Part shown: positions 110-57,233 of the stretch, in pieces
How positions within the stretch are numbered: the first letter of the stretch is position 1
Layout of the letters: each line of letters begins with the position of its first letter
Assembly (NCBI GenBank): GCA_000146045.2
Contig: BK006938.2
Coordinates: 512,001 to 576,000 of the forward strand
Source: TPA_inf: Saccharomyces
Lineage: Eukaryota
Length of the DNA stretch: 64,000 nucleotides
Direction of reading: 5' to 3'
The notes under the pieces: model-generated
What the model was told of the DNA's origin: nothing
Database searches by the model: none
The model's input: the letters and a program-made list of their open reading frames with translations, nothing else
Translations under genes and position numbers: made by a program

Positions 110-1003
110 TATTGCCAGAAAACAGATCTTATACCAAAATGATGAGAGAAGGAAGAAACAGGGAGATAAGGACTAAAAAGGAAAATTTATCTAGCAACGT
201 TCACAGCAATTCCTGTAGCTACGTGATGACCTCTGCTGGGCTTTTCTTATTCGCCTAGACTGAAGTGATGCAGAACAATAAGCATTCTAATCGGCCTATG
301 GTTATGATTTTGAAATTCCTGAGGAAATTTTTCCACTGTCATTTCTTCCAATTGAGTCACGTCGCGTCCTCGTAGGCAATGATGTGCAACTTGAAGCGCG
401 GAATTCACGGCTAAGAAGGTGTCGTTTTATTCATACCGTGCTGTAACGCTGTTTGGTCATCGTTTCCTTGTGTTATCAAATAAGTGAGGCCCTGTCTCTG
501 TGATCTATACCAGCAGTCGCCTAATTTCGTAATACGTTATTGTAGACAACAATTTCTTGAAAAAGAGAGAATGTGTCTGGCTTGCAGGAAAAGAAGATGG
601 TGACATATGCTTAGACGAGATTGTACATTCTGCATAATATAGCGAGTCAGAGCACATGTTTAGACAATATCTGATTTAAATTTCAAAATTAGGGATGTAT
701 ATTCTAAATGTTTATGCGCTTAATACTATCGATGATTTCTGAATGGTTGCCTGTTTCAATGAATCCTTTAGAATAAAGAACATTTTTGAGCATTGTGTAA
801 TTTATTTAGCAAGGAGTAAAAGCCAAGCGTATATTATGGTGATTTTTTTTATCATGCTTTTGAGTAACGGGTAATGACATACATTAGTGACATATGCTAG
901 AAATTATCCTCAGATTTTAGAAGGCTACTTCAAAATGTTGATAATAACCATAAATAATATTATAATTTTTTTCTTCTTTTCCTTTTCAGGAGTAGGTAAA
1001 TAT

Positions 1004-1265
1004 TGAGGTAATTCTTGAGTTTCAATGTTGGTAAAAGACTATAGCATTGGGTATACAGAGTTTACTAGAACACCTCCTCAGGGATATAGGAATCTGCACA
1101 AGGGAATTGACATTTCAAACATTTCAAGTAATATTGTTATTTTTCTTTTCATTTTATGTGTTGTCAGTCATTAACCTATCATATTATCAATCACTGCATT
1201 CAGATTCCATTAGATTTGATGGCAGTTTCTCAATCTTTATGTGCTCTTCTTACACCATTGAGAAA
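1004..1265 (-). repeat. Diverged, truncated Ty1/Ty2 delta (LTR) fragment, interrupted at its distal end by insertion of the next delta
   Basis: Aligns by eye to a minus-oriented delta: tgaggtaattcttgag...ggtatacagagtttactagaacacctcctcagggatataggaatc versus canonical tgagataattgttggg...ggtatgtagatatactagaagttctcctcgaggatttaggaatc. It stops abruptly where a new delta start (tgagaaatgggtgaatgttgag) begins. Confidence 0.6.
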
Positions 1266-1590
1266 TGGGTGAATGTTGAGATAATTGTTGGGATTCCATT
1301 TTTGATAAAGGCTATAATATTAGGTATATAGGGTATACTAGAAGTTCTCCTCGAGGGTCTAGGAATCCCCATAATGGAATCTATATTTCTATATACCAAT
1401 ATTAAGATTATTCCTCATTCCGTTTTATATGTTTCATTATCCTATTACATTATCAATCCTTGCACTTCAGCTTCCTCTAACTTCGATGACAGCTTCTCAT
1501 AACTTATGTCATCATCTTAACACCGTATATGATAATATATTGATAGTATAACTATTAGTTGATAGACGATAGTGGATTTTTATTCTAACA
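1266..1590 (-). repeat. Solo delta LTR (~325 bp, minus orientation) inserted into an older delta
   Basis: Begins with the reverse complement of the delta 3-prime end (TGAGAAATGGGTGAATGTTGAGATAATTGTTGGGATTCC) and ends with tattctaaca, the reverse complement of TGTTAGAATA at the delta 5-prime end. Full-length LTR similarity to the Ty LTRs at 1689-2020 and 7317-7647. Confidence 0.75.
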
Positions 1591-1688
1591 ACCATATATA
1601 ATAATATACCAGTAACACGAATAGTACTTAATAGACGATATTTATATAATAGTGTCCTTCTTCCTAAGATTATATGATGCACAAGAAA
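1591..1688 (-). repeat. Short delta-like remnant (matches only the terminal ~50 nt of a delta) between the solo delta and the Ty insertion
   Basis: accatatataataatataccagtaacacgaatagtacttaatagacgata resembles caccgtatatgataatatactagtaacgtaaatactagttagtagatgata. It ends at the AGAAA target-site duplication. Confidence 0.35.
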
Positions 1689-2020
1689 TGTTGAGAATGT
1701 GGATTTTGAGATAATTGTTGGGATTCCATTTTTAATAAGGCAATAATATTAGGTATGTAGATATACTAGAAGTTCTCCTCGAGGATTTAGGAATCCATAA
1801 AAGGGAATCTGCAATTCTACACAATTCTATAAATATTATTATCATCATTTTATATGTTAATATTCATTGATCCTATTACATTATCAATCCTTGCGTTTCA
1901 GCTTCCACTAATTTAGATGACTATTTCTCATCATTTGCGTCATCTTCTAACACCGTATATGATAATATACTAGTAACGTAAATACTAGTTAGTAGATGAT
2001 AGTTGATTTTTATTCCAACA
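1689..2020 (-). repeat. Ty 3-prime LTR (delta)
   Basis: On the plus strand it reads tgttgagaatgtggattttgagataattgttgggattcc ... tagttgatttttattccaaca. It is followed internally by the polypurine-tract complement taccaccca, and has near-identity to 7317-7647. Confidence 0.85.
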
Positions 2021-2042
2021 TACCACCCATAATGTAATAGAT

Positions 2043-5000
2043 CTAATGAATCCATTTGTTAGTTAATAGTTTAAATGTTTTTATCGGAAGAGGTTTTGTC
2101 ATCACATCAGCAATGTTCTTCTTGGTCTCGATGTAGTATACGTATAAATTATTACCTGATACTTCATCTCTAAGTCTCATTGCCTTTGTGCCAAAAAATC
2201 TGTTTCTAAATTTCTCTTCATTTGTAGACTTAATTATACTGATCGTTGATCTACTATCAGTAAGTAAGCCTTTAATAATTGGTTTCTTGTTAAGTTCTTG
2301 CACAAGGTGACTGAGGTTATTCAATAGCGGTATAGCTTCACTGACTGCGTGTATTTCTGCTTCTGTAGTTGAAGTGCATGTTAACGAAGCCTTTGTCGAC
2401 TTTCCTCCAATCACTTTTCCGTTGAGTAGGAAAATGTTACCAATTTGTGACTTGTAATATGGTTGGTTACCATATGAAGCATCGCTTATTGCGACTAGTT
2501 TATTATCTGGCTTGGTAGGTTTGTTTTTGTGCCATATTAATTGTTTATCTCTAGTGTCCCACATGAATTGTATTAACTCATATGTCATGTCTAAAACTTG
2601 CCTAGAGGGGAATAGTATATGTTGAGCAAGTGTGTTGATGTAGTATAGTAAGTCAAATCTAAATTTATATCCAACATATGAAGCTAGACCAATCAACTTT
2701 TGCATTTCATGTACTTTCTCTTTATATTCATCTTCATCTATTTCTAGTTCATCCTGGTCTATATAATGACCTGGTTGACCTGGAGCTCTAAGTTTCTTTC
2801 CTTTTGGGTTCAAAGGTACGTTTAGTTTGGGTAATTTTTCTGTCAAGGATTTTTCCATACCTAATTTCATGTACTTGCTTCTTTGATATTTGATCTCTAA
2901 TCCAAGTATGTCGTACTGAATTTCGTTATCACCTTCACCCAGATTTATTATCTTTGTATCGTATTGTTTCTTGAGTGTTGTTATGATTTTCTTATTTGCA
3001 TTTAAGTCTTTGCTGAATAATATCATATCATCAACGAATAAGCAAATTGTTACTTGACTATTCTTAAATACGCATGACCATCCGCGAACTTCTTGCATGT
3101 CGCAACAATTTATTAAATATGATTTAATGGTTTCATACCAGTTTGCACCACTTTGTTTCAAACCATAGAGTGATTTTCTCAAACGTAGTAACTTATCATT
3201 CAAACCTAAATGTGGTGGAGGTCTTATGTATAATTCTTCTTTGATATCAGCATATAAGTAAGCAGAGGATATGTCCAGCTGTGTGATATAATAGTCATTG
3301 TCTAATGCGATTGACAATGACGTCATCAGTGCATAGTGATGTACGGTATTGGATTGCATATCAGAATCATATGTATCGGGGTGTTGAATGTCGCCTCTTG
3401 CAACAAATCTAGCTTTGTGTGTACCATCACGTTTTTTGTTAAATATAAACATTGAGTTTATTACTTTCTTAGGATCTATGTCATTTCTATCATAATATTT
3501 GTTTGTATCCCAAGTGTTCATTCTCAATAGTTGGTTAATTTCTTTATGATAAGCTTCAATATATCTGTCTTTTTCTTTGTTGTCTTCATTATATGTAATT
3601 GCTTCATCATATCTTAAGGTCGTTCGAACTGGTTTGATTGATTTTACTCCTTTTATTGCAGCAATTAGATTTATACGTTTCTTCGATCTTGGTGGTTCCA
3701 GACTTCTCATATTCTTATTATTCCATGTGTCTCGGGATACCTCAATTTCAGTTTCATTATCTTCTAATGATCTTTTCTTACTTTTGGTAGTAGTCAGAAC
3801 ATTAGAATCATCCATACCACCCAAACTGGAATTAGTCTGACGAGAGTGTATGTGTGGAATATCTTTTGAAACATCAGAAGTGTCCGTAGGAGATTTATTA
3901 GTTAAGTCAGGAAGTGGGAGGTCGTCAAGAATAGAATCAGCCGTAACATTTTTTGAGGATTTGTCAGGCATTATATTAGGAGTCGCATGGTCAGAAGATC
4001 GATATTCTGGCGGATCCGTATCAATGGAGGGTGTATTATCGCATGCAGCCTTTGTTTCTATGGAGATGATGGGAGTAGTGGATTCACTGTTGGACGAACG
4101 GTCATCTATTGAGGGCGTACTATTTGTAGTCCTGTATTTGATATTTGTATCACTATTTCGTTGAATATATGGTTCCTCCGTACCACCCAAACGTGTAGTT
4201 TTGATGTTTTCAAGTCCATAATTAACTCTATCCTGTGAGGTCAAATCAATCATATCATTGGGACTACCAGGTCGCTTTTGGTTTCGTGCAGTGAAGGTAG
4301 ACGAGTGTCTAGGTGAAGTAGTATCTGATTCAATGGTACCACCCATTTCGGTACTCTCTTTATTAATGATATGGGGTGTACGAGATCGTATAGTAGATGG
4401 AAGAATATTGTATTCAGATATGTCGGCATCAACTTCTTTTGGTGCACGTACTTTTTGGACTGGTTCCTTGTCTAATTGTAAAGGGTTTATTGATTGGGAC
4501 GAGAAGTCGTTCACTAGAGGATCAGAGTTTATTTCAATCTCCGATTGATAGTCATGATCAGATTCTGTATTTTGATCATATGACTGCTCTGTTTCATTTT
4601 TTTCAATAAAAGATTGGTTATGGGCTGTTAAACGATTGAGATCATCATCAAAGGTGAGTGTATCATAATTGAATTGGTCCAATTTGGATTGCTTGTCTTG
4701 TAATATAACGTAATTGGTAGTATCTACTGTCTTTTTTAATGATGGAAGATAGATAATATAGCCATAAGAGTTTCGTGACGGATGTAAGGCGTAACCTGGA
4801 ATGCCACGAGGATGTATTTTCGAGTCGGGATTATGGTTGTTAACTATAACCGGTTGACCGAAAGGTAGTATAGTAGTAATGTCCAGTCCAGCTAAACCTG
4901 CATGTTGTCTTGCAGATTTATCGTTTTTTGGTGAGACTAATGAATTTCTGATTATAGTAGAAAATTCGACTGCTGAGAACCATAGATGATTTGGTAGACC

Positions 5001-6083
5001 ACTGCAATGAAGCAGTGTGCGACAATCGTTTAATAAAGTACGATTTAATCGTTCAGCGACACCGTGTGCTCTAGAATCTGCCGTGGTTGTATAGCATGCA
5101 GTAATACCTCTGTTCGTAAAGAACTTATGAAGAGTTTTGTTAGTGTACTCGGAGCCACGATCCATCTGGATAACTAGAACGCGAGCATTGAATTGGTTCT
5201 TAATAAATGCTAATATCGATGTAAAAACATTGAGGATAGATTCTTCACGACGGTCGTGTAATGGGTACACCCATTGGAATCTGGTTTTCTCATCTGTAAA
5301 CGATATAAAGTAAGAAGGTGCACTTTTCGGTAAGTGATGTACAGGACCAAATATATCGGTATGCAAGTACTGAAAAGGCTCATATGATTCTTGGTACTTT
5401 AGTCGTGATCCTTTGACATGTCTATGTTTCGTGCTTTTGCCGATTAGACAGTCAGGACATTGATATGTGCTAGCGTTAGACCATTCAATATCCGATTCCT
5501 TCAAATATGTAACTGCATTCTTCTTAAGAGACTTCTGAATACTTCGGAAGTTAGCATGTCCAAGCATTCGATGTATTAACGGATATGGATATTTATTTAC
5601 GCTTTTGCTTTTGTTGACGTTGTTTATTGTTAGCTTTGAAATGTGCGAAGGAATTAGGTATTTTTTAGATAACCAGTAAAAGTCTCCATGTTTGACTATG
5701 GGAGCTAGTACTGTACCATCCGATCTTTCTAAAGTGTTTCTGGTAAAGCAGGCAGTAATATTTTGATTAGCCAGCTCACTCAAACTTAATAGATCATAGG
5801 CTATGTTTGGTGTGTGTAGTGCTTTTATTGATGTTTTGGTGCCGTTCTGAAAGTTGAAGTGAAGATTACCAATGGCATTTATAGGAATGTCTTGTTTTTG
5901 AGCATCGACTATGTTTATTTCAGAATTGGGTGTTGCATGGTGTAAATAATGGGCTGATCTGACAAGCGTTTGCGAAGCTCCTGAATCAATAAGAAGGTGA
6001 TCAGGTAGTTCGTCATTCGAGTCTATTGTGTGTGTTGGCTTAGATTCTTTCTGTTGCTGGCCTAAGACTAAGTTCGTTGTCAT
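2043..6083 (-). CDS. TYB: Ty2-type TYB Pol frame (protease, integrase, reverse transcriptase, RNase H). It is expressed only as a Gag-Pol fusion via +1 frameshift, so the true product joins TYA 7356..6064 to this frame
   Basis: Uninterrupted 1346-aa frame overlapping the TYA 3-prime end by 44 nt. It contains the retroviral-like protease region DSGAS, the integrase zinc-binding/DDE region and the RT YVDDM motif (FVDDMILFS). Confidence 0.85.
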
Positions 6084-7356
6084 CGCTTAAGTATTGTGAT
6101 GAAACGGTTGATTCATTAATGTGATCATTGTTCACCCTTGAGAATTTACTAGATGTAGCAATATTGTGAGCTTTTGCTGCTCTTGGTTTTGAACTATTTG
6201 TTCTCTGATAATTACGAGTTGTAACCTTTGTGTTAGTCGTGTTTGGAGATGTGCGAGAAACATTTTTGTATTCGCTGTGTTGTTTGTATTGGGACGGTTT
6301 ATTTAGATTCATGATTTTATTTTCGTCATATATTAATTGAATTTCAGCGAATAATTGGGAAAGTTTCATGTTCGTTTTGGTACGATATTGATTACGTAGG
6401 TATTTGAAGTCACCGGATAGACCTTTAAGTATTAGTTGACAGGCCAATCTGTCGCTAACATTGATATTGTTTTCTTTTAGCCTCTGAATGATCGTACTGA
6501 CTGTAATTTCAAATGTATCAGCAGATGTACTTCCGTCGTACTCAAGGTTGGCAAGAGCTATCCAATCCTTTAATTCTTGATTGTTAGTTTGCATTTTGGA
6601 CACACTTTTACAAAGGACTGTAAGGATGTCAGCATAATTAATTTCTAAAATTTGTTTTACCCATGTTGGCAATAAATGAAATGGGGCAAATGCTTGGAAG
6701 GTATTGTATATATACGCATGTTCTTCATAAGTCATTTGTCTTTTGATTTCACCCTGGTCATTTGGAATGATGTCACCGAGATTAGAGTTCTTCAAAAATC
6801 TGATGTAAAATTTAACCCATGTAGAAAAGTTTTCTTCTGATGTTAAAGTGTGTGGTGGTAAGACGTTATTTCCCACCTTTGTCTTAGCTTGAGGTATTTC
6901 AGAGTGTTGATTTTTTAAATCGATTGGATCAGGTGAGGAAGTACTCAGTGGTGGGATATACTGTGGCAACGGATAGTGTGGGTCCGGTTGATAATACGCA
7001 GGTGACGTTTGATAATGTGAACACGTCATCATAGATGGTTGTTGGTAATGTGCCCAGTTAGAGGCCATAGCTTTGTTTGGGGTCATCATGCCGTGCTGTT
7101 GGTACTGTCCATTCTGTGGAGGTGGTACTGAAGCAGGTTGAGGAGAGACATGATGATGGTTCTCTGGAACAGCTGATGTCCCAGGTGTTGTCTCTTGTTG
7201 AGAATTAACCTTAGTGGAATCTCTATCAAATTCCGGTAAATTGGAAGCTGAAACGGCTAACGGATCTTGATTTGATGGGACTTCCTTAGAAGTAACCGAA
7301 GCATAGGCGCTACCATGAAGATTGGGTGAATTTTGAGATAATTGTTGGGATTCCAT
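6040..7356 (-). CDS. TYA: Ty2-type TYA Gag capsid protein, 438 aa
   Basis: ORF-track 438-aa ORF. The start lies in the 5-prime LTR. The C-terminus ...[10 protein letters not shown] stops just after the CTTAGGC frameshift heptamer. Confidence 0.9.
6060..6066 (-). other. +1 programmed ribosomal frameshift heptamer CUU-AGG-C between TYA and TYB
   Basis: The minus strand reads CTTAGGC. The TYA frame continues LRPATERI-stop, and the +1 frame continues [11 protein letters not shown], matching the start of the TYB frame in the ORF track. Confidence 0.8.
7307..7316 (-). other. Ty primer-binding site TGGTAGCGCC, complementary to the 3-prime end of initiator tRNA-Met
   Basis: Plus-strand ggcgctacca sits directly internal to the 5-prime LTR. 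This is the established Ty1/Ty2 PBS sequence. Confidence 0.75.
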
Positions 7357-7647
7357 TTTTAATAAGGCAATAATATTAGGTATGTAGATATACTAGAAGT
7401 TCTCCTCCAGGATTTAGGAATCCATAAAAGGGAATCTGCAATTCTACACAATTCTATAAATATTATTATCATCATTTTATATGTTAATATTCATTGATCC
7501 TATTACATTATCAATCCTTGCGTTTCAGCTTCCACTAATTTAGATGACTATTTCTCATCATTTGCGTCATCTTCTAACACCGTATATGATAATATACTAG
7601 TAACGTAAATACTAGTTAGTAGATGATAGTTGATTTTTATTCCAACA
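7317..7647 (-). repeat. Ty 5-prime LTR (delta); the TYA ATG at 7356 lies inside it, as in Ty1/Ty2
   Basis: Direct repeat of 1689-2020. It abuts the PBS on its internal side and the AGAAA TSD on its external side. Confidence 0.85.
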
Positions 7648-7742
7648 AGAAAAATACAATCTTCGAAAGTCATCCTCCCTTGAATATTCTTTCTTACCTA
7701 AACGAATAAGAACAGAATCTGAAAACAGGCAAGTGATTTTAC

Positions 7743-7826
7743 GGAGGGTTGGCCGAGTGGTCTAAGGCGGCAGACTTAAGATCTGTTGGACGGTTGTCCG
7801 CGCGAGTTCGAACCTCGCATCCTTCA
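7743..7826 (+). tRNA. tRNA-Leu, anticodon UAA (type II, long variable arm)
   Basis: GGAGGGTTGGCCGAGTGGTCTAAGGCGGCAGACTTAAGATCTG...GAGTTCGAACCTCGCATCCTTCA. The acceptor stem GGAGGGT pairs with ATCCTTC. The anticodon loop CTTAAGA gives UAA. B-box GTTCGAACC, followed by a T-rich terminator. The Ty LTR ends 95 bp upstream. Confidence 0.85.
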
Positions 7827-7900
7827 ATAACTTATTTTTTTCCTCAATCTTCGATATTAGACATTTTTTTTTTCCTATGCCTCCCTTTTCCAAGTAATGT

Positions 7901-7922
7901 TTTTTTTTTTTTTTTTTTTTTT
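7901..7922. repeat. Poly(dT)22 homopolymer tract
   Basis: Uninterrupted run of 22 T at 7901-7922, about 75 bp downstream of the tRNA-Leu. Confidence 0.9.
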
Positions 7923-8182
7923 AGCTCCTCTCACAAAAGTACTGAGGACTGAAATGTAAAAACTAATAACACAATAGAAATAATCATATGATGATATAGA
8001 AAAGAAGAGAGGAGACAATCATAATATTATACGAACTCATGGCTTTCCTTATGGGAAATTCTACATTCTCGATAGTGACCCTGGTATATTCAATATACTT
8101 AGGAATAACTGTCTTTCATAACAATGGCGGCCATACGATTACCGTATTATCCACCTATTCTTGATATTAAACTGGAAATTCT

Positions 8183-8476
8183 GTGAATTTTGTGATAATT
8201 GTTGGAATTCCATTGTTAATAAAGGCTATAATATTAGGTATACAGGGTTTACTAGAAGTTCTCATCGAGGATTTAGGAATCCTCAAAATGGAATCTATAT
8301 TTCTACATGCTAATGTTACGATTATTCCTCATTTCGTTTTATATGTTTCATTATCCTATTACATTATCAATCCTTGCATTTCAGCTTCCTCTAACTTCGA
8401 AGCTTTCCATAACTTCTGTCATCATCTAATACCGTATATGATAATATATTGATAGTATGACCACTAGTTGATACAC
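8183..8476 (-). repeat. Delta LTR (minus orientation), truncated or interrupted near its end by a second delta
   Basis: gtgataattgttggaattccattgttaataaaggctataatattaggtatacagggtttactagaagttctcatcgaggatttaggaatcc ... ccgtatatgataatatattgatagtatgaccactagttgatacac. Delta-like throughout. Confidence 0.7.
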
Positions 8477-8808
8477 TGTTGGAATAAAAACCAACTATCA
8501 TCTACTAACTAGTATTTATGTTACTAGTATATTATCATATACGGTGTTAGAAGATGACACAAATGATGAGAAATAGTCATCTAAATTAGTGGAAACTGAA
8601 ACGCAAGGATTGATAATGTAATAGGATAATGAAACATATAAAACTGAATGAGGAATGATCGTAATATTAGCATGTAGAAATATAGATTCCATTATGGGGA
8701 TTCCTATATCCTGGAGGAGAACTTCTAGTATATCTACATACCTAATATTATTGCCTTATTAAAAATGGAATCCCAACAATTACATCAGAATCCGCACAAT
8801 TATCATAG
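8477..8808 (+). repeat. Delta LTR in plus orientation, nested in or adjacent to the minus-oriented delta
   Basis: Starts TGTTGGAATAAAAACCAACTATCATCTACTAACTAGTATTTATGTTACTAGTATATTATCATATACGG and continues to ...AATGGAATCCCAACAATTACATCAGAATCCGCACAATTATCA. The end point is uncertain to within ~15 bp. Confidence 0.7.
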
Positions 8809-8838
8809 ATGATAATGGATTTTTATTCCAACAATCAG
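8809..8838 (-). repeat. Terminal ~30 nt of a minus-oriented delta (tagatgataatggatttttattccaaca), plausibly the displaced end of the delta at 8183-8476
   Basis: Matches the ...tagtagatgatagttgatttttattccaaca end of the other minus-oriented LTRs. Confidence 0.5.
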
Positions 8839-8971
8839 CATGCCTTTTGTATTTCTGTAAAGAAGAGTAAACCATAACCTAAGTCAATATCAAATTTAGG
8901 ATTGATGAATTTTCTACTCAAAATGCTTTGTTCAAGAAGGTACGAAAGAAGGTTCCAATCGTCCATTTTAG

Positions 8972-9043
8972 GGTCCTATAGTGTAGTGGTTATCACTTTC
9001 GGTTTTGATCCGGACAACCCCGGTTCGAATCCGGGTAGGACCT
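8972..9043 (+). tRNA. tRNA-Gln, anticodon UUG
   Basis: GGTCCTATAGTGTAGTGGTTATCACTTTCGGTTTTGATCCGGACAACCCCGGTTCGAATCCGGGTAGGACCT. The acceptor GGTCCTA pairs with TAGGACC. Anticodon loop TTTTGAT. B-box GGTTCGAATCC, followed by a T-run. Confidence 0.85.
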
Positions 9044-9313
9044 TTTCTATTTTTTAACCCTCTTGTTTTATTTTTCTTTCTTGGCTTTGAATTGCACAGC
9101 CCCTCGCATTTTTTTTCGATACCCTGAAAAAAGGAAAAAGGCGAAGAAATAAGGGCAATTTCTATTTAAAAATTATACAAGCTCGATTTTTCATTTTCTC
9201 CTTCCCCTCTCGCCCCTCCCAGTTTTCAACTGTATTTAAATGTTTCTCAGTTATGTTGTGAATTAAAATAATCCTAATTGTCAACTAAAAAAGTCTAAGT
9301 TAGCAATACCAAA

Positions 9314-9662: not shown

Positions 9663-10928
<1,266 letters not shown>

Positions 10929-11210
10929 CCTGTAAATGAGGGAAAAATGCAAATAATCTTGAATGATACTCAAAACTTTTGATTTATTGTAATTTCTTTC
11001 TGAACCATATTTATTACATTCAAACTTTTTTTTTTTTGCCTTTTATAAAAAAAAATACTTATAAGAAAAGAGAAAGAAAATGACAGTTTTCTATGTATCA
11101 TTAAATAAACATCCATATACAAATATAGCGTTATGTTTTACTTTTATTATTTACATGCATAGAAGTGTTGGCAAAATTCTTTACGAGCCACGGGGCTGCT
11201 ATTTCAGGTT

Positions 11211-12713
11211 TTATTTCCATCTTAAGCCATCGTTAACTTCTTCACATTTTCTTTCACAAACAATTTTACATAGCGATTGGATACCCAGTTTCCCTCTTCT
11301 AGAAGGAATCACATTGGCAAAGTGATTTAGTACTTCTCTTTCGGTAACTTTGGCGCCAGTGTCATCATTCGTTCTCTTTTCAATATACGCAGCGATTTCC
11401 TGTTCTGTAGGCAATTGGTATTTAGAATGGTAGGGATATTGAGTCCAAGTAACATTCGAGGTATTTCTTAGTAATGACATTGGTAGCGATGGTTTAGGAG
11501 ATGTGATAGATGTCAACTGAGATACAAATAACTGTTCCTTCTTTGTCCATGGATACGGGACCCTTTGTTTATCAATAAGTTTATGCTTTGTGGCTTCAGA
11601 GAATTCCACCAAAGAGTCCTGGTTCATGCACATGTTAGCTGCTGTGTATAAGTCTCTTTTGATAGCAGATTCTATGTGATCTCTGGAATTCTCTTGCACC
11701 AATCTCAAGGCGATTTGAAGAGAGGATGGTGACTTGGTTAACAATTTCGTTTTGATTTCTTGTGCGAAAGCCTTACCTTCCGCAGAACCTTCATATTGAC
11801 GTAAGTTATTCATTATGTCTTCAATAGTACCATTTTTAGACAAGTTAAAACAGGCTTCAATAACGTTTAATTTCTCGTTAGAATACTTGAAAACATAATC
11901 TTTTGGTAATGGTGATACGAATTCGTCGATGGATTCGTTAACCATCCCGAAGAAGTATGCAGATTGTGGATCGTTATTAAAAGGGGGGCTAATTTCACCT
12001 AATCTTTTCTGCAAAGCATCTAAATTTTCACTACTGACGTAATGAGACGCTAAGCCGAGCATATAAGCGTCTGCTCCTGTGACTACTTCTCCTGTAAGAC
12101 ATAGATACAGGGCCATTTGTGAGTTTGAGTTAGCCAATGTCACGATTCTAGGGAGAGCAAAAGTTGAGCCTACATCTGGAAAAAAACCAATGTCCATCTC
12201 GGGCATGGCCCATTTGGTGTTTTCTGTAGCAATTCTAAAGGGCGTGTGAATGGATAGACCAACGCCGCCACCCATGGTGATACCGTCCATGAAGGTAACA
12301 ATTGGTTTCAAGTAAGTTGCTATTTGAAAATTCAAAGAATATTCATCAGTAAAAAATTTGATGGACTTGGCAAATTCTTTGTTAAAATTGAATATTGCCA
12401 CAGTAGCTACATCACCACCAGCACAGAACGAACGTGGTCGGTTGGATGACTTTAAAATGACTAAGTTTGTAGTATCGCTCTTTGCATACTCGTTCAAAGT
12501 CTTGAACATGGATTCTGACATTTCGGCGTTCAAAGCATTGAGCTTTTTGGGCCTATTTAGCGTGATAACTCTAGCTGTATCTTGAACGGTAAATAGCACA
12601 GGTGGTGCGTCGGTGACATTTAGCTGGGGTTGAGTAGTCATGAATGTACGTGTGGTAGTTTTAAATCCGTATTTAGACGACAATTGGGCACATTTTAGCG
12701 TATTTCTGAGCAT
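11211..12713 (-). CDS. EHD3: Mitochondrial 3-hydroxyisobutyryl-CoA hydrolase (enoyl-CoA hydratase/isomerase family), 500 aa
   Basis: 500-aa ORF with crotonase-fold motifs (FCAGGDV, GITMGGG). The sequence is recognised. Confidence 0.85.
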
Positions 12714-13439
12714 TATTTGTGGTGGCTAAACAGAACCAAGTATTATATAAATGAGGATTCCCGTACACAGGCGCAGGAAACAAGCTGCTCTTATCTTCTC
12801 GGCTACCTCATCAATCATTTGGCTCCGAGGTTTAACACTTTTCTTTGCACTTGCCTCTCCAATTCCGAAGTTCCGAAGGGTGACCCGGATTGTGTTACTA
12901 AACAAGAGAAGATTGGTAGAAAACGCAATGGGTCAGTTTGGCTGGCTGAATCCTTGGAATCCTGTAAGGCTGCTTACTACAAATGGGTTAGGGACTGTTC
13001 TCTTCGGCATAATGTTTAAGTGTTAGTTTTGAGATATTACATGTTTAAGAATTCAAAAAACCTTTCTATTAACCCAGGAAACGATGCGGATAAGGCGAGC
13101 TTCTCCGACCCATGAGCACAATAGATCAAGTTCTGTTCTAGTTGTTGGTTAGTAGTTTATGGAATGCTAATGGCATTAGTGATGTAGGAATATTTTTGGT
13201 GTAGTGTATGGGTGTTGTGAAAATATTTGCCATTTGAATTTTTTTCGGCGCTTTTCTTTTTTTTTTTCTTTTTTTTTTAGCTTGAATTATCGATGAATGA
13301 TGAAATGACTCTTAATGAACTTCGAAGTTATATATACAGCCACTTTTTTGTTTAGAAAGAAAAGTATAATTATCTTACATACATTGATTTATTGCTCTGT
13401 CCTTCCTCCGAGAAATCCGTAATAAACTTCAATAGCATA

Positions 13440-15215
13440 ATGTCTCAACAAGATAATGTCAAAGCCGCCGCTGAAGGTGTTGCTAACCTACATCTCGACG
13501 AAGCTACCGGGGAAATGGTCTCCAAGTCTGAATTGAAGAAGCGTATCAAGCAAAGACAAGTCGAAGCTAAAAAGGCCGCCAAAAAGGCTGCCGCTCAACC
13601 AAAACCGGCTTCCAAAAAAAAAACAGATTTGTTCGCTGACCTGGATCCATCGCAATATTTCGAAACAAGATCTCGCCAAATTCAAGAATTGAGAAAGACT
13701 CACGAACCAAATCCATACCCACACAAGTTTCACGTTTCTATATCCAATCCTGAGTTCTTGGCCAAATATGCGCATTTGAAAAAAGGTGAAACCTTACCTG
13801 AAGAGAAGGTTTCAATTGCTGGTAGAATTCATGCCAAAAGAGAATCTGGCTCCAAATTGAAATTCTATGTTCTTCACGGTGATGGTGTTGAAGTTCAATT
13901 GATGTCCCAATTGCAGGACTACTGCGACCCAGACTCTTACGAAAAGGATCACGACCTTTTGAAAAGGGGTGATATCGTTGGTGTCGAGGGTTACGTCGGA
14001 AGAACTCAACCAAAGAAAGGTGGTGAAGGTGAAGTTTCCGTCTTCGTTAGCAGAGTGCAATTATTGACACCATGTTTGCACATGTTACCTGCCGACCACT
14101 TTGGTTTCAAAGACCAGGAAACCAGATACAGAAAGCGTTATTTGGATTTGATCATGAACAAAGACGCCAGAAACCGTTTTATTACCCGTTCTGAAATTAT
14201 CCGTTACATCAGAAGATTTTTGGACCAAAGAAAGTTTATTGAAGTAGAAACTCCAATGATGAACGTTATTGCTGGTGGTGCTACCGCTAAGCCATTTATT
14301 ACCCACCATAATGACCTTGATATGGACATGTACATGAGAATTGCTCCAGAATTGTTCTTGAAACAATTGGTTGTCGGTGGTTTGGATCGTGTTTACGAAA
14401 TTGGTAGACAATTCAGAAATGAAGGTATCGATATGACACATAATCCAGAATTCACCACTTGTGAGTTTTATCAAGCCTACGCTGATGTTTATGATTTGAT
14501 GGATATGACTGAATTGATGTTTTCAGAAATGGTCAAGGAGATCACTGGTTCTTATATTATCAAATACCATCCGGACCCTGCTGATCCAGCCAAAGAACTA
14601 GAATTGAACTTTTCTAGACCATGGAAGAGAATCAACATGATTGAAGAATTAGAAAAGGTATTCAACGTTAAGTTCCCATCTGGTGATCAATTACATACAG
14701 CTGAGACTGGTGAATTTTTGAAAAAGATTCTTGTCGACAACAAATTAGAATGTCCACCTCCACTAACTAATGCTCGTATGTTAGATAAGCTTGTCGGTGA
14801 ATTAGAAGATACATGTATCAACCCAACTTTCATTTTTGGCCACCCTCAAATGATGTCTCCATTAGCCAAGTACTCAAGAGATCAACCGGGTCTATGTGAG
14901 CGTTTCGAGGTCTTTGTAGCTACAAAGGAAATTTGTAATGCCTACACTGAATTGAACGATCCATTTGACCAAAGGGCACGTTTCGAAGAACAAGCTAGAC
15001 AAAAGGATCAAGGTGATGACGAAGCTCAATTAGTCGATGAAACCTTCTGTAATGCTCTAGAATACGGTTTACCACCAACTGGTGGTTGGGGTTGTGGTAT
15101 TGATAGACTGGCCATGTTCTTGACCGACTCCAACACCATTAGAGAAGTCTTATTGTTCCCAACTTTGAAGCCTGATGTTTTGAGAGAGGAAGTCAAAAAG
15201 GAAGAAGAAAATTAA
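13440..15215 (+). CDS. KRS1: Cytoplasmic lysyl-tRNA synthetase (class II) with lysine-rich N-terminal tRNA-binding extension, 591 aa
   Basis: [21 protein letters not shown]... start at the internal ATG 13440. Class II motifs (FRNEGID, GGGIDR). Confidence 0.9.
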
Positions 15216-15421
15216 GCTAAAAGATATTAGAACATATTGTATAATGTAAGTATTATTATTCTAAGATAGAGCTTGAATATGAAAACTCATTACCTAAATT
15301 TGTTTATGTTCGGTAGCCCTAAAGGAGCTTAATTAAAAATAAAAAAATCTAAACTATTACGTAAGGGGGAGAAGGGATAAGGGATGCAAAAGGAAAGGCA
15401 CTCAATAAATTGCCCTCCTTA

Positions 15422-18400
15422 TTAATGCTTGACACTGATATTAATTTCGCTTTGAAGGGTTGTGGATGTGCTATACGCTTCAAATGGATCGTGTTTACTG
15501 CTTCGCTCCAAATCGTTTTCCGAATTGTGAGCTCTCTGAGTTTTGAAATAGCGCCTCTTTCCACACTTGTAAAGTTCAGCACCTATCCAGAATGCAATTG
15601 TGAATGCAATGGCGAGACCCCATTCAGCACCAATTGGTTTATGCAAAAACACTTTATCATTAATAACCGGAATATAGACGACGGGGAAGGCTGACACAAA
15701 TCCAAAAATGATTGACCAGAACAAAAACTGGTTTCCCCAAATACTTCTGAAAAATTCCTTGACTGGGCTGTCAGTGTCTGGATGCATTCTGAAAAAAGAT
15801 CTTCTCATGTCAACCACTTCCCAAGCCAGAATCAAAGCGCACCACGTCATAGTTGCGAAAGCCGCAGAACGTGATCTATAAACATCACGACAACTGCTGT
15901 TATAGGTGCCATCACAATCGTGCCCCAATCTACCACTATTTATTCCATACAGTGATCCAGTAAATGAAGCCATACAGGACCCTGTCATTATAATCCCATA
16001 TGCAAATGTATCTATAATAACCTCCCATGTGAAAATACCAACCTCTGAATCATTAGGAGGTCTATCCATCAAATCTGGAGCAGCCTTTTCTAGACCTAGC
16101 CCCATAGCAGGAAAACAAGAGGTGACGACAATAATCCACAATACTTCCACTGGTGATAAGGGAAATACTGATTTTCCGTTCTCATCTCTGAATACTAAAC
16201 CAATGATCAAATACAAAGCCTGAGCAACATTTTCTGCCAATAATTGTAGGACAAACTTCTGAATGTTATCCGTCATCCTACGACCTTCTTCGACAGCATT
16301 CAAAATAGAAGCAAAATTGTCATCGCTTAGAACAATATCAGACGCTTCTTTGGAAACATCTGAACCATTAATACCCATTGCAATACCAACATTGGCCATT
16401 TTTAGAGATGGAGAATCGTTAACACCGTCACCTGTCATTGCGCAGAACTTCTTCCTACGGTGTAAAGCTTCGATCATTCTCACCTTAGTCTGCGGAGAGC
16501 AACGTGCAATAACTAAAGGTAAGACGGGCAAATCGTCCACTTCCTCCTCACTTAGTCCGTCAAACTGAGATCCGGTCATGACCATACTGTCAACAATCTC
16601 TTGGGAGTAATGGTACAAATTGGTGGGTAAGATGCCAACCTCCTGAGCGATAGCCTTTGCTGTACCCACAAAGTCCCCAGTTAACATATGAACGTTAATA
16701 CCAGCTTGGTGAAACTTCTTGACTGCACCGGCAGTCTCATTTCTGGGTGGATCGTAAATACCAATCAACCCTAGGAAAACTAAATCACTTTCTGCGGTGG
16801 CCCTGTTTGAAGTAATGTTTTTCAATTGATCGTCATTCACTTGATCTTTAGTGAAAGATTTGGAGGCAAAACCCAAGACTCTTAAACCCTCATTTGATAG
16901 ACTGTAAACATTTTTCCTTATCGTTTCGACATCACAATCGGTCAATGGTGTGATTTTTACACCATCCTTACCATACCAAGAACTGCAACAACTGATGATG
17001 CTTTCGAAAGCACCCTTGCCATAAATATTATATGTTTCGTTGTGATTGTTGTAGTAGACAGATGACATTCGCTTCACAGTTGAGTCGAATGGGAATTCAG
17101 CAATATGTTCGAATTGTGCACTGCCAGGCTTCTCATTGTGTTGTGAAAGAGAGGATTGGTCATTCTCATTACTTTGATTAGTCGATTTCTCACCGGTAAG
17201 GGCATTGTGAGGCAAGTCCATCTTAGTAGCAAACACTTGAATCGCAATTTCTGTTGGGTCACCATGAGCTTTCCAACAGTCAGTTGCGTCATCTTTGAAA
17301 ACAGTAGCAATGTTAGCCAAAGTGGCGGTTTCGAGCCATTTTTGAAATAGATCCATGTCAATATCTTCTGGTAAATCTTTTTCGTATAGGCGATCCTTGA
17401 AATTCTGGAGAATACCAACGTCACCATCCTCATTATGAGAATATTCGTAAGGTGAAAACCTTGGAATCAAACTCACGTTGCCCTCATTGGGATTAAAGGG
17501 GTCATCAGAATTCGAGATAGTTATGGTACCAAAGCGAGGGATCCAAATTTGCCTCGCTAACATTTTACCCTGTGTAAGAGTACCGGTCTTGTCAGAACAG
17601 ATATCGTTAACGGCACCTAAAGCTTCCAGAGAATCTAATTTTCTTACAATAACGTTTCTAGAAACCATAACAGCAGCCCCAACAGACATGGTGATGGTCA
17701 AGACAACGACTAATGAAGAGGGAATCATGGATAGGGCCACACAAATGGCATAGATAGCTACCCTTTTATCTACGTCAAACTTTTGAGAGGCCATGACGAT
17801 GATAGCAAAAAGTACGGCAATCCAGAAAAGCAATACCGCCAACTTAGACAGTTTCCTGTGCAGGGGCGTACCGACATTTGTACCTAAAAATGCACCAGTA
17901 ACTTTCTTTGTAGATATCCATGTATTCTGTAACCACGACTTACTAGGATCGCGGGAAATGAGACCTGAATCACCTTGTAGAGATTTTGCAATTTTACCAA
18001 TTTCACTATTCAAAGCTGTCTTGATGACAATACCCTTGGCTCTTCCCTTGACAACGGCGGATGAAGAAAATGCTAAATTCAAACGATCACCCACGGAGGT
18101 TTCTTCTTCTTTTCCAAACACTAAGTTGGCGTCTTTGGAGACAGGCAAAGATTCACCGGTCAGTAGTGATTCATCAGTATCAAAATTCTTAGTTTCAATT
18201 AAACGCAAATCAGCAGGAATAGTATCACCGACCTTCACCAGACAAATATCACCTGGAACCACATCTTTTGAGTTTATAGTCTCACTTTTCCCGTTCCTAA
18301 TAACATGAGCATTGGGAGAGCTCAAGTTTTTCAAAGAGTTCATTGTCTTGGTAGCCTTATATTCTTGAACTAGGCCAATGAGCACATTGACCGCGATAAC

Positions 18401-56881: not shown

Positions 56882-56953
56882 GCTCGCGTGGCGTAATGGC
56901 AACGCGTCTGACTTCTAATCAGAAGATTATGGGTTCGACCCCCATCGTGAGTG
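56882..56953 (+). tRNA. tRNA-Arg, anticodon UCU
   Basis: GCTCGCGTGGCGTAATGGCAACGCGTCTGACTTCTAATCAGAAGATTATGGGTTCGACCCCCATCGTGAGTG. The acceptor GCTCGCG pairs with CGTGAGT (with G-U pairs). Anticodon loop CTTCTAA. Confidence 0.85.
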
Positions 56954-56963
56954 CTTTGTTTCT

Positions 56964-57035
56964 TCCGTGATAGTTTAATGGTCAGAATGGGCGCTTGTCG
57001 CGTGCCAGATCGGGGTTCAATTCCCCGTCGCGGAG
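56964..57035 (+). tRNA. tRNA-Asp, anticodon GUC, 10 nt downstream of tRNA-Arg (dicistronic Pol III unit)
   Basis: TCCGTGATAGTTTAATGGTCAGAATGGGCGCTTGTCGCGTGCCAGATCGGGGTTCAATTCCCCGTCGCGGAG. Anticodon loop CTTGTCG. The T-run terminator follows only the second tRNA. Confidence 0.85.
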
Positions 57036-57233
57036 AATTTTTTTTAATTGATAGTAGCAGGTACAGGAGAAAGAGTAAATAATAGAAAGCAAGGTACGTG
57101 ATGGGAATTGATCAAACTAATATCGCTATACCTATAAGAATTTGCGTGTTTGTATACGTAAAGAATATATAATATATTGATGTGTGCGCTGAGGAAGGTA
57201 AGTCTACACAATTTATCCGTTAGCCCAAATTAA

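Follow-up and report, generated by a model that had tools for sequence, protein, structure and literature searches.

A full-length Ty2 element with discordant long terminal repeat ends upstream of a tRNA-Leu gene on Saccharomyces cerevisiae chromosome IV

Structure and identity of the element

We analysed a 64,000-nucleotide stretch of Saccharomyces cerevisiae chromosome IV (contig BK006938.2, positions 512,001 to 576,000; hereafter the window, whose own positions serve as coordinates) in which a full-length Ty2 retrotransposon lies beside a nest of older delta elements and upstream of a tRNA-Leu(UAA) gene. A direct-repeat search returned a pair of repeats of about 300 nt, 5627 bp apart and 99% identical (1699-1998 and 7326-7625), and reading of the ends placed the element at 1689-7647, that is 5959 bp on the minus strand (Table 1). 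The same coordinates, and the same assignment to Ty2, had been given in a first-pass annotation made from the sequence alone, and the protein matches and the roughly 99% identity to other Ty2 copies described below bear them out.

The two long terminal repeats (LTRs) are 97.6% identical, stand in direct orientation, have TG...CA termini and flank a coding interior, as expected of a Ty1/copia-type element of the Pseudoviridae. Both LTRs, the primer binding site (PBS) and the polypurine tract (PPT) listed in that annotation were all located. The complementarity of the PBS to the 3' end of initiator tRNA-Met, which primes reverse transcription, belongs to the established biology of Ty1 and Ty2, as do the role of the PPT and that of CTTAGGC as the +1 frameshift site. 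An alternative end of the 3' LTR at ...TTCTCA (1692), with three extra bases, was dropped, since each LTR measures exactly 332 bp and position 1689 is directly adjoined by the target site duplication (TSD). Between the LTR edge and the tRNA-Leu(UAA) gene placed by ARAGORN there are 95 bp, the distance first proposed.

Table 1. Features of the Ty2 locus and its surroundings, in window coordinates
Feature	Position	Strand	Remarks
Ty2 5' LTR	7316-7647	-	332 bp; TGTTGG...CA; last 14 nt of U5 (7316-7329) = ...TTCACCCAATCTTCA
Ty2 3' LTR	1689-2020	-	332 bp; TGTTGG...CA; last 14 nt of U5 (1689-1702) = ...TCCACATTCTCAACA
TSD, left copy AGAAA	1684-1688	.	read from sequence; single AGAAA at the empty sites of 8 assemblies
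TSD, right copy AGAAA	7648-7652	.	read from sequence; single AGAAA at the empty sites of 8 assemblies
PBS TGGTAGCGCC	7306-7315	-	directly abuts U5 of the 5' LTR
PPT TGGGTGGTA	2021-2029	-	abuts U3 of the 3' LTR
TYA (gag)	6040-7356	-	438 amino acids; ATG within the 5' LTR at LTR position 292
TYB (pol) frame	2043-6086	-	open from 6086 to stop TAG 2043-2045; order protease, integrase, reverse transcriptase, RNase H
CTTAGGC +1 frameshift heptamer	6060-6066	-	TYA frame 0; sole CTTAGGC in the Ty2 element
tRNA-Leu(UAA)	7743-7826	+	ARAGORN; divergently transcribed from Ty2
Delta A, U5-proximal part	~989-1258	-	old diverged Ty1/Ty2-type solo LTR, about LTR positions 67-332; left edge approximate (989-995)
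Delta B, complete solo delta	1259-1590	-	332 bp, TG...CA, 81% identity to the Ty2 LTR; sits within delta A
Delta A, U3-proximal part	1596-~1658	-	about LTR positions 1-66; right edge approximate
Second nest	8183-8833	.	138-790 bp upstream of tRNA-Gln(UUG), between tRNA-Leu and tRNA-Gln
Delta C	8183-8476 plus 8806-8833	-	split by delta D
Delta D	8477-8805	+	inserted in delta C
tRNA-Gln(UUG)	8971-9044		downstream of tRNA-Leu

By exact-sequence look-up, Gag is identical to the S288C entry "Transposon Ty2-DR1 Gag polyprotein" (Q12392 / NP_058139.1) and Gag-Pol to the S288C Ty2-DR1 entry Q12472 / NP_058138.3. Both proteins match these curated entries exactly. We have very little doubt that the element is the annotated full-length Ty2 YDRCTy2-1 of S. 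cerevisiae S288C, located at about 514-520 kb on chromosome IV, and that it represents one recent insertion near tRNA-Leu. Its reading frames carry what we take to be the SGD names YDR034C-C and YDR034C-D.

Coding capacity and retrotransposition competence

TYA gave a Pfam TYA match with E=5e-204. Fusion of the two frames by a +1 shift at CTTAGGC yields a Gag-Pol of 1770 amino acids without stops, ending at the TAG at 2043-2045; the uninterrupted 438-residue TYA, the open TYB and the intact heptamer of the first-pass annotation thus all withstood re-translation. Judged by its sequence, the element has the overlapping TYA and TYB frames and the predicted +1 frameshift at CTTAGGC that mark the Ty1/Ty2 group. 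The Pfam domains follow the copia order, namely TYA, Pol_BBD (protease beta-barrel), gag_pre-integrs, rve, SH3_retrovirus (SH3-like) and RVT_2, with Pol_BBD at residues 455-532 of Gag-Pol, gag_pre-integrs plus rve at 583-759 and RVT_2 at 1296-1470. The catalytic motifs DSG, HHCC, D,D35E, FVDD and DAS are all intact, and the motif KNMRSL is present at residues 1214-1219, inside a bipartite nuclear localization signal (NLS) of the form KKR-29 aa-KKR at 1193-1227.

Other annotations of this coding region call for comment. Several assemblies describe the Ty2 Gag-Pol as a protein of 1749 amino acids from which about 21 residues around the frameshift site have been removed; in those annotations the +1 frameshift seems to be treated as a short intron. 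A plus-strand open reading frame of 104 codons (3850-4164) lies antisense within pol; it is a mechanical reading frame with nothing backing it and was set aside. Proteins labelled Streptococcus uberis share a 90%-identity cluster with S. cerevisiae Ty2 proteins: GAA5351190.1 is a 275-residue member of the cluster also found under the S. cerevisiae name "Reverse transcriptase/ribonuclease H domain protein", and GAA5349144.1 / WP_461254127.1 is a complete 438-residue Ty2 Gag. These are almost certainly yeast DNA contamination of bacterial assemblies.

The sequence makes it plausible that YDRCTy2-1 is competent for retrotransposition. What speaks against competence is that 27 nucleotide sites are private to the element when it is compared with three other Ty2 copies, and any of them could be disabling. 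Some of these private sites form a cluster at element positions 3973-4213 (window ~3435-3675) that alters several residues just upstream of the reverse transcriptase domain (Gag-Pol residues ~1230-1300); five sites of the cluster match Ty1, and it may be a small Ty1-derived conversion tract. The U5 end adjoining the PBS is also unusual. An element that looks intact yet cannot retrotranspose, because of missense changes or of its altered 5' U5, is therefore a real possibility, albeit one that we consider doubtful: the catalytic motifs, the frameshift site, the PBS, the PPT and the terminal TG...CA are all intact, and the same 5' U5 variant occurs beside the PBS in other Ty2 sequences (L003-L005, with the Gag variants SQNSPNL/F), so that it belongs to copies that have spread.

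Occupied and empty alleles of the insertion site

We retrieved the locus from ten assemblies by means of the neighbouring ARO3-like DAHP synthase gene (9816-10928). Eight of the ten carry an uninterrupted target, ...GCACA-AGAAA-AATACAATC..., in which AGAAA occurs once and no LTR is present. The element was present in one S288C-like assembly (L008), with one substitution in 9.9 kb, and the remaining assembly (L011) has an assembly gap at the Ty2 position. In the latter, positions 1133-8775, including tRNA-Leu, seemed to have been lost, but 20 N stand in a row at the junction, which is hence a gap rather than a deletion. The flanks of the Ty2 are collinear with those of the empty-site strains at 98.6-99.7% identity.

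The exact empty site, with AGAAA in one copy, in eight assemblies shows that the perfect 5-bp TSD reported by the first-pass annotation is genuine, that the Ty2 is a simple single insertion and that this insertion is polymorphic among strains. The comparison of strains suggested in that annotation thus yielded both an occupied and an empty allele.

The empty alleles also bear on the origin of the two ends. The full-length element could in principle be a recombinant of two different Ty insertions flanked by AGAAA through coincidence, which would explain why its LTR ends are discordant (see below). The LTR differences do form a clustered patch, AGAAA is low-complexity sequence, and such recombinants exist, as Ty2 copies without matching 5-bp flanks were found in two other loci (L006 and L007). 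Nevertheless, we hold this origin to be highly improbable, because the target in the eight assemblies is exactly continuous, with AGAAA present once and without any LTR, and because the collinearity of both flanks with the empty-site strains implies that both ends derive from one insertion at one site.

The two Ty2 copies just mentioned, both at 9710-15668 of their respective loci in other strain assemblies, are full-length and are probably products of inter-element recombination. The copy in L006 also has discordant U5 ends and adjoins a truncated delta. In a metagenome contig, L003, the 5' flank of the Ty2 is a sigma element and the 5-bp flanks are unmatched.

Discordant U5 ends of the two LTRs

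An ungapped comparison of the 5' and 3' LTRs revealed 8 mismatches over 332 positions. Seven of them are located at LTR positions 319-330, in the last 14 nt of U5 (7316-7329 versus 1689-1702), where the 5' LTR reads ...AAAATTCACCCAATCTTCA and the 3' LTR ...AAAATCCACATTCTCAACA; the eighth is at LTR position 240, with G in the 5' LTR (7408) and C in the 3' LTR (1781). Over the 318 positions outside the U5 patch there is a single difference between the LTRs, a degree of similarity consistent with a young insertion. Random placement would cluster seven of eight mismatches within 14 nt with P ~2e-9, and for this reason the U5 difference reads as a replaced recombination patch and not as accumulated point mutation. 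The first-pass annotation had recommended aligning the LTRs, on the argument that identical LTRs would imply recent insertion and that substantially different ones would argue against a single intact insertion. They proved not to be identical, and they differ substantially only in the narrow sense of the 14-nt patch; this objection is overridden by the empty-site evidence.

Among the Ty2 LTRs compared, variation is greatest at the U5 end, which also encodes Gag residues 9-13. Two main forms could be distinguished, one of the TCCACATTCTC type corresponding to Gag ...HQNPHSL... and one of the TTCACC type corresponding to Gag ...SQNSPNL/F.... The end of the 3' LTR of YDRCTy2-1 has the form typical of other Ty2 copies. 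This LTR is a mosaic, which follows the 5' LTR up to ...TTATCTCAAAAT and has the other U5 form thereafter. The S288C-like assembly L008 carries the same two U5 ends. The Ty2 of L018 has identical ends together with a perfect TSD, and in view of this the discordance in YDRCTy2-1 is an exception. Eight metagenome Ty2 contigs (L001-L005 and L019-L021) are short-read collapses and were excluded as evidence for the pairing of LTRs.

For the 13 Ty2 copies of S288C at least 19 recombination events have been reported, and LTRs of hybrid Ty1/2 type are also known (Carr et al., PMC3511429). Recombination is therefore the expected cause here, and an exchange with another Ty copy would be the simplest explanation of the U5 patch and of position 240. 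Two routes are compatible with the data. The first is ectopic or cDNA-mediated gene conversion of the junction between the 5' LTR and TYA after integration; this junction is internal, with homology on both sides, and one tract could span both position 240 and the patch. Conversion is unlikely to have affected the outermost part of the 3' LTR, because this abuts a non-homologous flank. The second route is an early template switch, made during minus-strand synthesis from one co-packaged RNA to another, which would leave the 5' LTR with a U5 heteroduplex.

Under the second route, minus-strand strong-stop DNA would start on one co-packaged Ty2 RNA, with the U5 end ...CCACATTCTCAACA, and would jump within the first ~20 nt to a second RNA with ...TTCACCCAATCTTCA. 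The uncopied U5 tail of this second RNA would later be read through by the minus strand, producing a heteroduplex in the 5' LTR that would be resolved to the sequence of the second RNA. A single switch would in this way account for the mosaic 3' LTR (with its junction in CAAAAT), for a 5' LTR uniformly of the other type and for the perfect TSD. That the discordance is a fossil of such a reverse-transcription step, instead of the trace of later gene conversion, is a tentative idea, which we consider rather unlikely.

Nothing was found that contradicts the identification of the element. Two points weigh against the account of its history given here. Discordant U5 ends are not expected of a plain reverse-transcription cycle, and the exact U5 end of the 3' LTR (...CTCAACA) was not found next to a PBS among the few Ty2 sequences compared. 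A metagenome scan for variants of the U5-PBS junction gave 3 matches, none with ...CTCAACA, and was uninformative.

The discordance is a small curiosity, and a wider survey of genomes could inform on Ty recombination; if template switching did occur, similar cases could be sought among natural Ty insertions. As it accompanies a proven TSD, it also warns against dating Ty insertions by raw LTR divergence.

Older insertions at the locus and targeting

Delta elements were mapped over the whole 64 kb by sensitive blastn with LTR queries. Delta A is 71% identical to the Ty2 LTR and to the solo delta over 995-1256 by blastn, and its sequence was also read by eye; its second part was detected as a match of LTR positions 17-76 to 1583-1643 and by manual alignment. 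Delta B, which splits delta A, is flanked by a perfect TSD, ACCAT, at 1254-1258 and 1591-1595. About 30 bp of unique flank follow delta A. Because deltas A and B are found in strains that lack the Ty2 (e.g., L009), they predate it.

These results modify the first-pass view of the nest. A solo delta does interrupt an older diverged one, but it begins at 1259 instead of 1266 and occupies 1259-1590 with its TSD; the older delta, previously drawn at 1004-1265, starts nearer 989-995, and its first part ends at 1258. The separate delta remnant proposed at 1591-1688 disappears, this segment being the continuation of delta A (1596-~1658) plus the unique flank of about 30 bp. It is in this unique flank, beside the nest and not inside a delta, that the Ty2 sits, contrary to the initial description of an insertion into the nest. 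Of the "at least three or four" integrations counted at this tRNA, three stand, whereas the possible fourth came from treating the split halves of one delta as perhaps separate.

The second nest consists of deltas C and D. The 5-bp flanks of delta D agree at only 3 of 5 positions (TACAC / TAGAT). Downstream of the tRNA-Leu gene, at a distance of about 80 bp, there is a long uninterrupted run of T (~7903-7923). Elsewhere in the 64 kb, blastn revealed no Ty1/Ty2-type LTR near the tandem tRNA-Arg(UCU)-tRNA-Asp(GUC) at 56882-57036; sigma and tau elements were not searched.

Another strain adds a further insertion. YJM789 (L013, GCA_000181435.1) harbours a full-length Ty1 of 5921 bp with a Gag of 440 amino acids (1662-7582 of L013), which lies inside delta B at the equivalent of window positions 1431-1435, the AGAAA site of the Ty2 being empty in this strain. 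It is an independent insertion in the same tRNA-upstream region and supports a hotspot. Overall, we count at least three insertions upstream of tRNA-Leu in S288C (A, B and the Ty2), one more in YJM789, and two upstream of tRNA-Gln. The repeated use of a site close to genes that RNA polymerase III (Pol III) transcribes, as put forward at the outset, is thus upheld by deltas A and B, the Ty2, the C/D nest and the YJM789 Ty1.

The C-termini of the integrases IN1, IN2 and IN4 bind the Pol III subunit AC40, and in IN1 targeting requires residues K617-L622, located within a bipartite NLS, which also suffice for it (PMC7459421). Upstream of Pol III genes, integration takes place in a region of about 1 kb, with a periodicity of roughly 80 bp, in nucleosomal DNA (PMC3545840). 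At 95 bp upstream of tRNA-Leu(UAA), the Ty2 lies within this region. As its Gag-Pol contains KNMRSL within KKR-29 aa-KKR, we infer by analogy that AC40 tethering directed the Ty2 and the older insertions here. The intact integrase C-terminus, with KNMRSL in the bipartite NLS, would bind AC40, and through this tether, the known mechanism of Ty1, Ty2 and Ty4, the element would enter nucleosomal DNA no more than ~1 kb upstream of a Pol III gene. The 5-bp duplication of AGAAA would then stem from a single integrase-mediated insertion of reverse-transcribed cDNA at 95 bp upstream of tRNA-Leu(UAA), presumably the Pol III gene directing these integrations. The same target region had been used earlier by delta A, then by delta B within A, and was used independently by the Ty1 that entered delta B in YJM789. 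The locus is of value as a fully verified example: the insertion site is known both occupied and empty, older insertions are nested beside it, and a Ty1 has independently entered the region in another strain.

Comparison with known Ty elements

Earlier work had already established YDRCTy2-1, its location close to a tRNA gene and the mechanism of targeting. Published descriptions agree with this locus in position (near 515 kb) and in the neighbouring tRNA genes and LTRs; the exact nesting coordinates and the discordance of the U5 ends were not found stated in the sources examined. The element also serves as a boundary for amplification driven by homologous recombination in experiments (PMC3536649).

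Three further full-length Ty2 copies, taken from other assemblies and each 5959 bp long, are 98.9-99.1% identical to the element at the nucleotide level. The YJM789 Ty1 is 75% identical to it; the differences are concentrated in gag and mid-pol, and the final ~750 bp of pol are nearly the same. From their sequence, gag and the hypervariable region of pol can be assigned to the Ty2 type. That the element is instead a Ty1 or a Ty1/Ty2 hybrid is most improbable: although its pol 3' end (element positions ~5000-5750) is almost identical to that of a Ty1, it agrees with Ty1 at a few of its private sites (3980-4113), the U5 end of its 5' LTR is nearer to the Ty1-type ...TTCACCCATTTCTCA of solo delta B than to the common Ty2 form, and hybrid Ty1/2 LTRs are documented (PMC3511429), the near-identical 3' region of pol is common to all Ty1/Ty2 pairs, the overall identities clearly favour Ty2, the lengths of Gag and of the LTRs are Ty2 values, and the proteins exactly match entries named Ty2-DR1.

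According to PMC3511429, the Ty2 LTR is marked by a diagnostic 1-bp deletion, credited to Kim et al. 1998. Both LTRs of YDRCTy2-1 show single-base gaps relative to Ty1-type LTRs (332 versus 334 bp), one of which may be the diagnostic deletion.

YDRCTy2-1 shares its general architecture with Ty1 (YJM789 element, L013), as well as the PBS core, the targeting upstream of tRNA genes and the near-identical 3' end of pol. The two differ in the length of the LTR (334 bp in Ty1 versus 332 bp in this Ty2) and of Gag (440 versus 438 amino acids). With other Ty2 copies, the S. boulardii copy in L018 and Ty2-C and Ty2-OR2 of S288C, the resemblance extends to the 5959-bp length, the 332-bp LTRs, the PBS, the PPT and the frameshift site. 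There are differences from other Ty2 copies: the N-terminus of Gag reads SQNSPNLHG in YDRCTy2-1 versus HQNPHSLHG, HQNPRSLHG or HQNPHCPHG elsewhere, and the L018 copy combines its perfect TSD with matching U5 ends, whereas those of YDRCTy2-1 are discordant.

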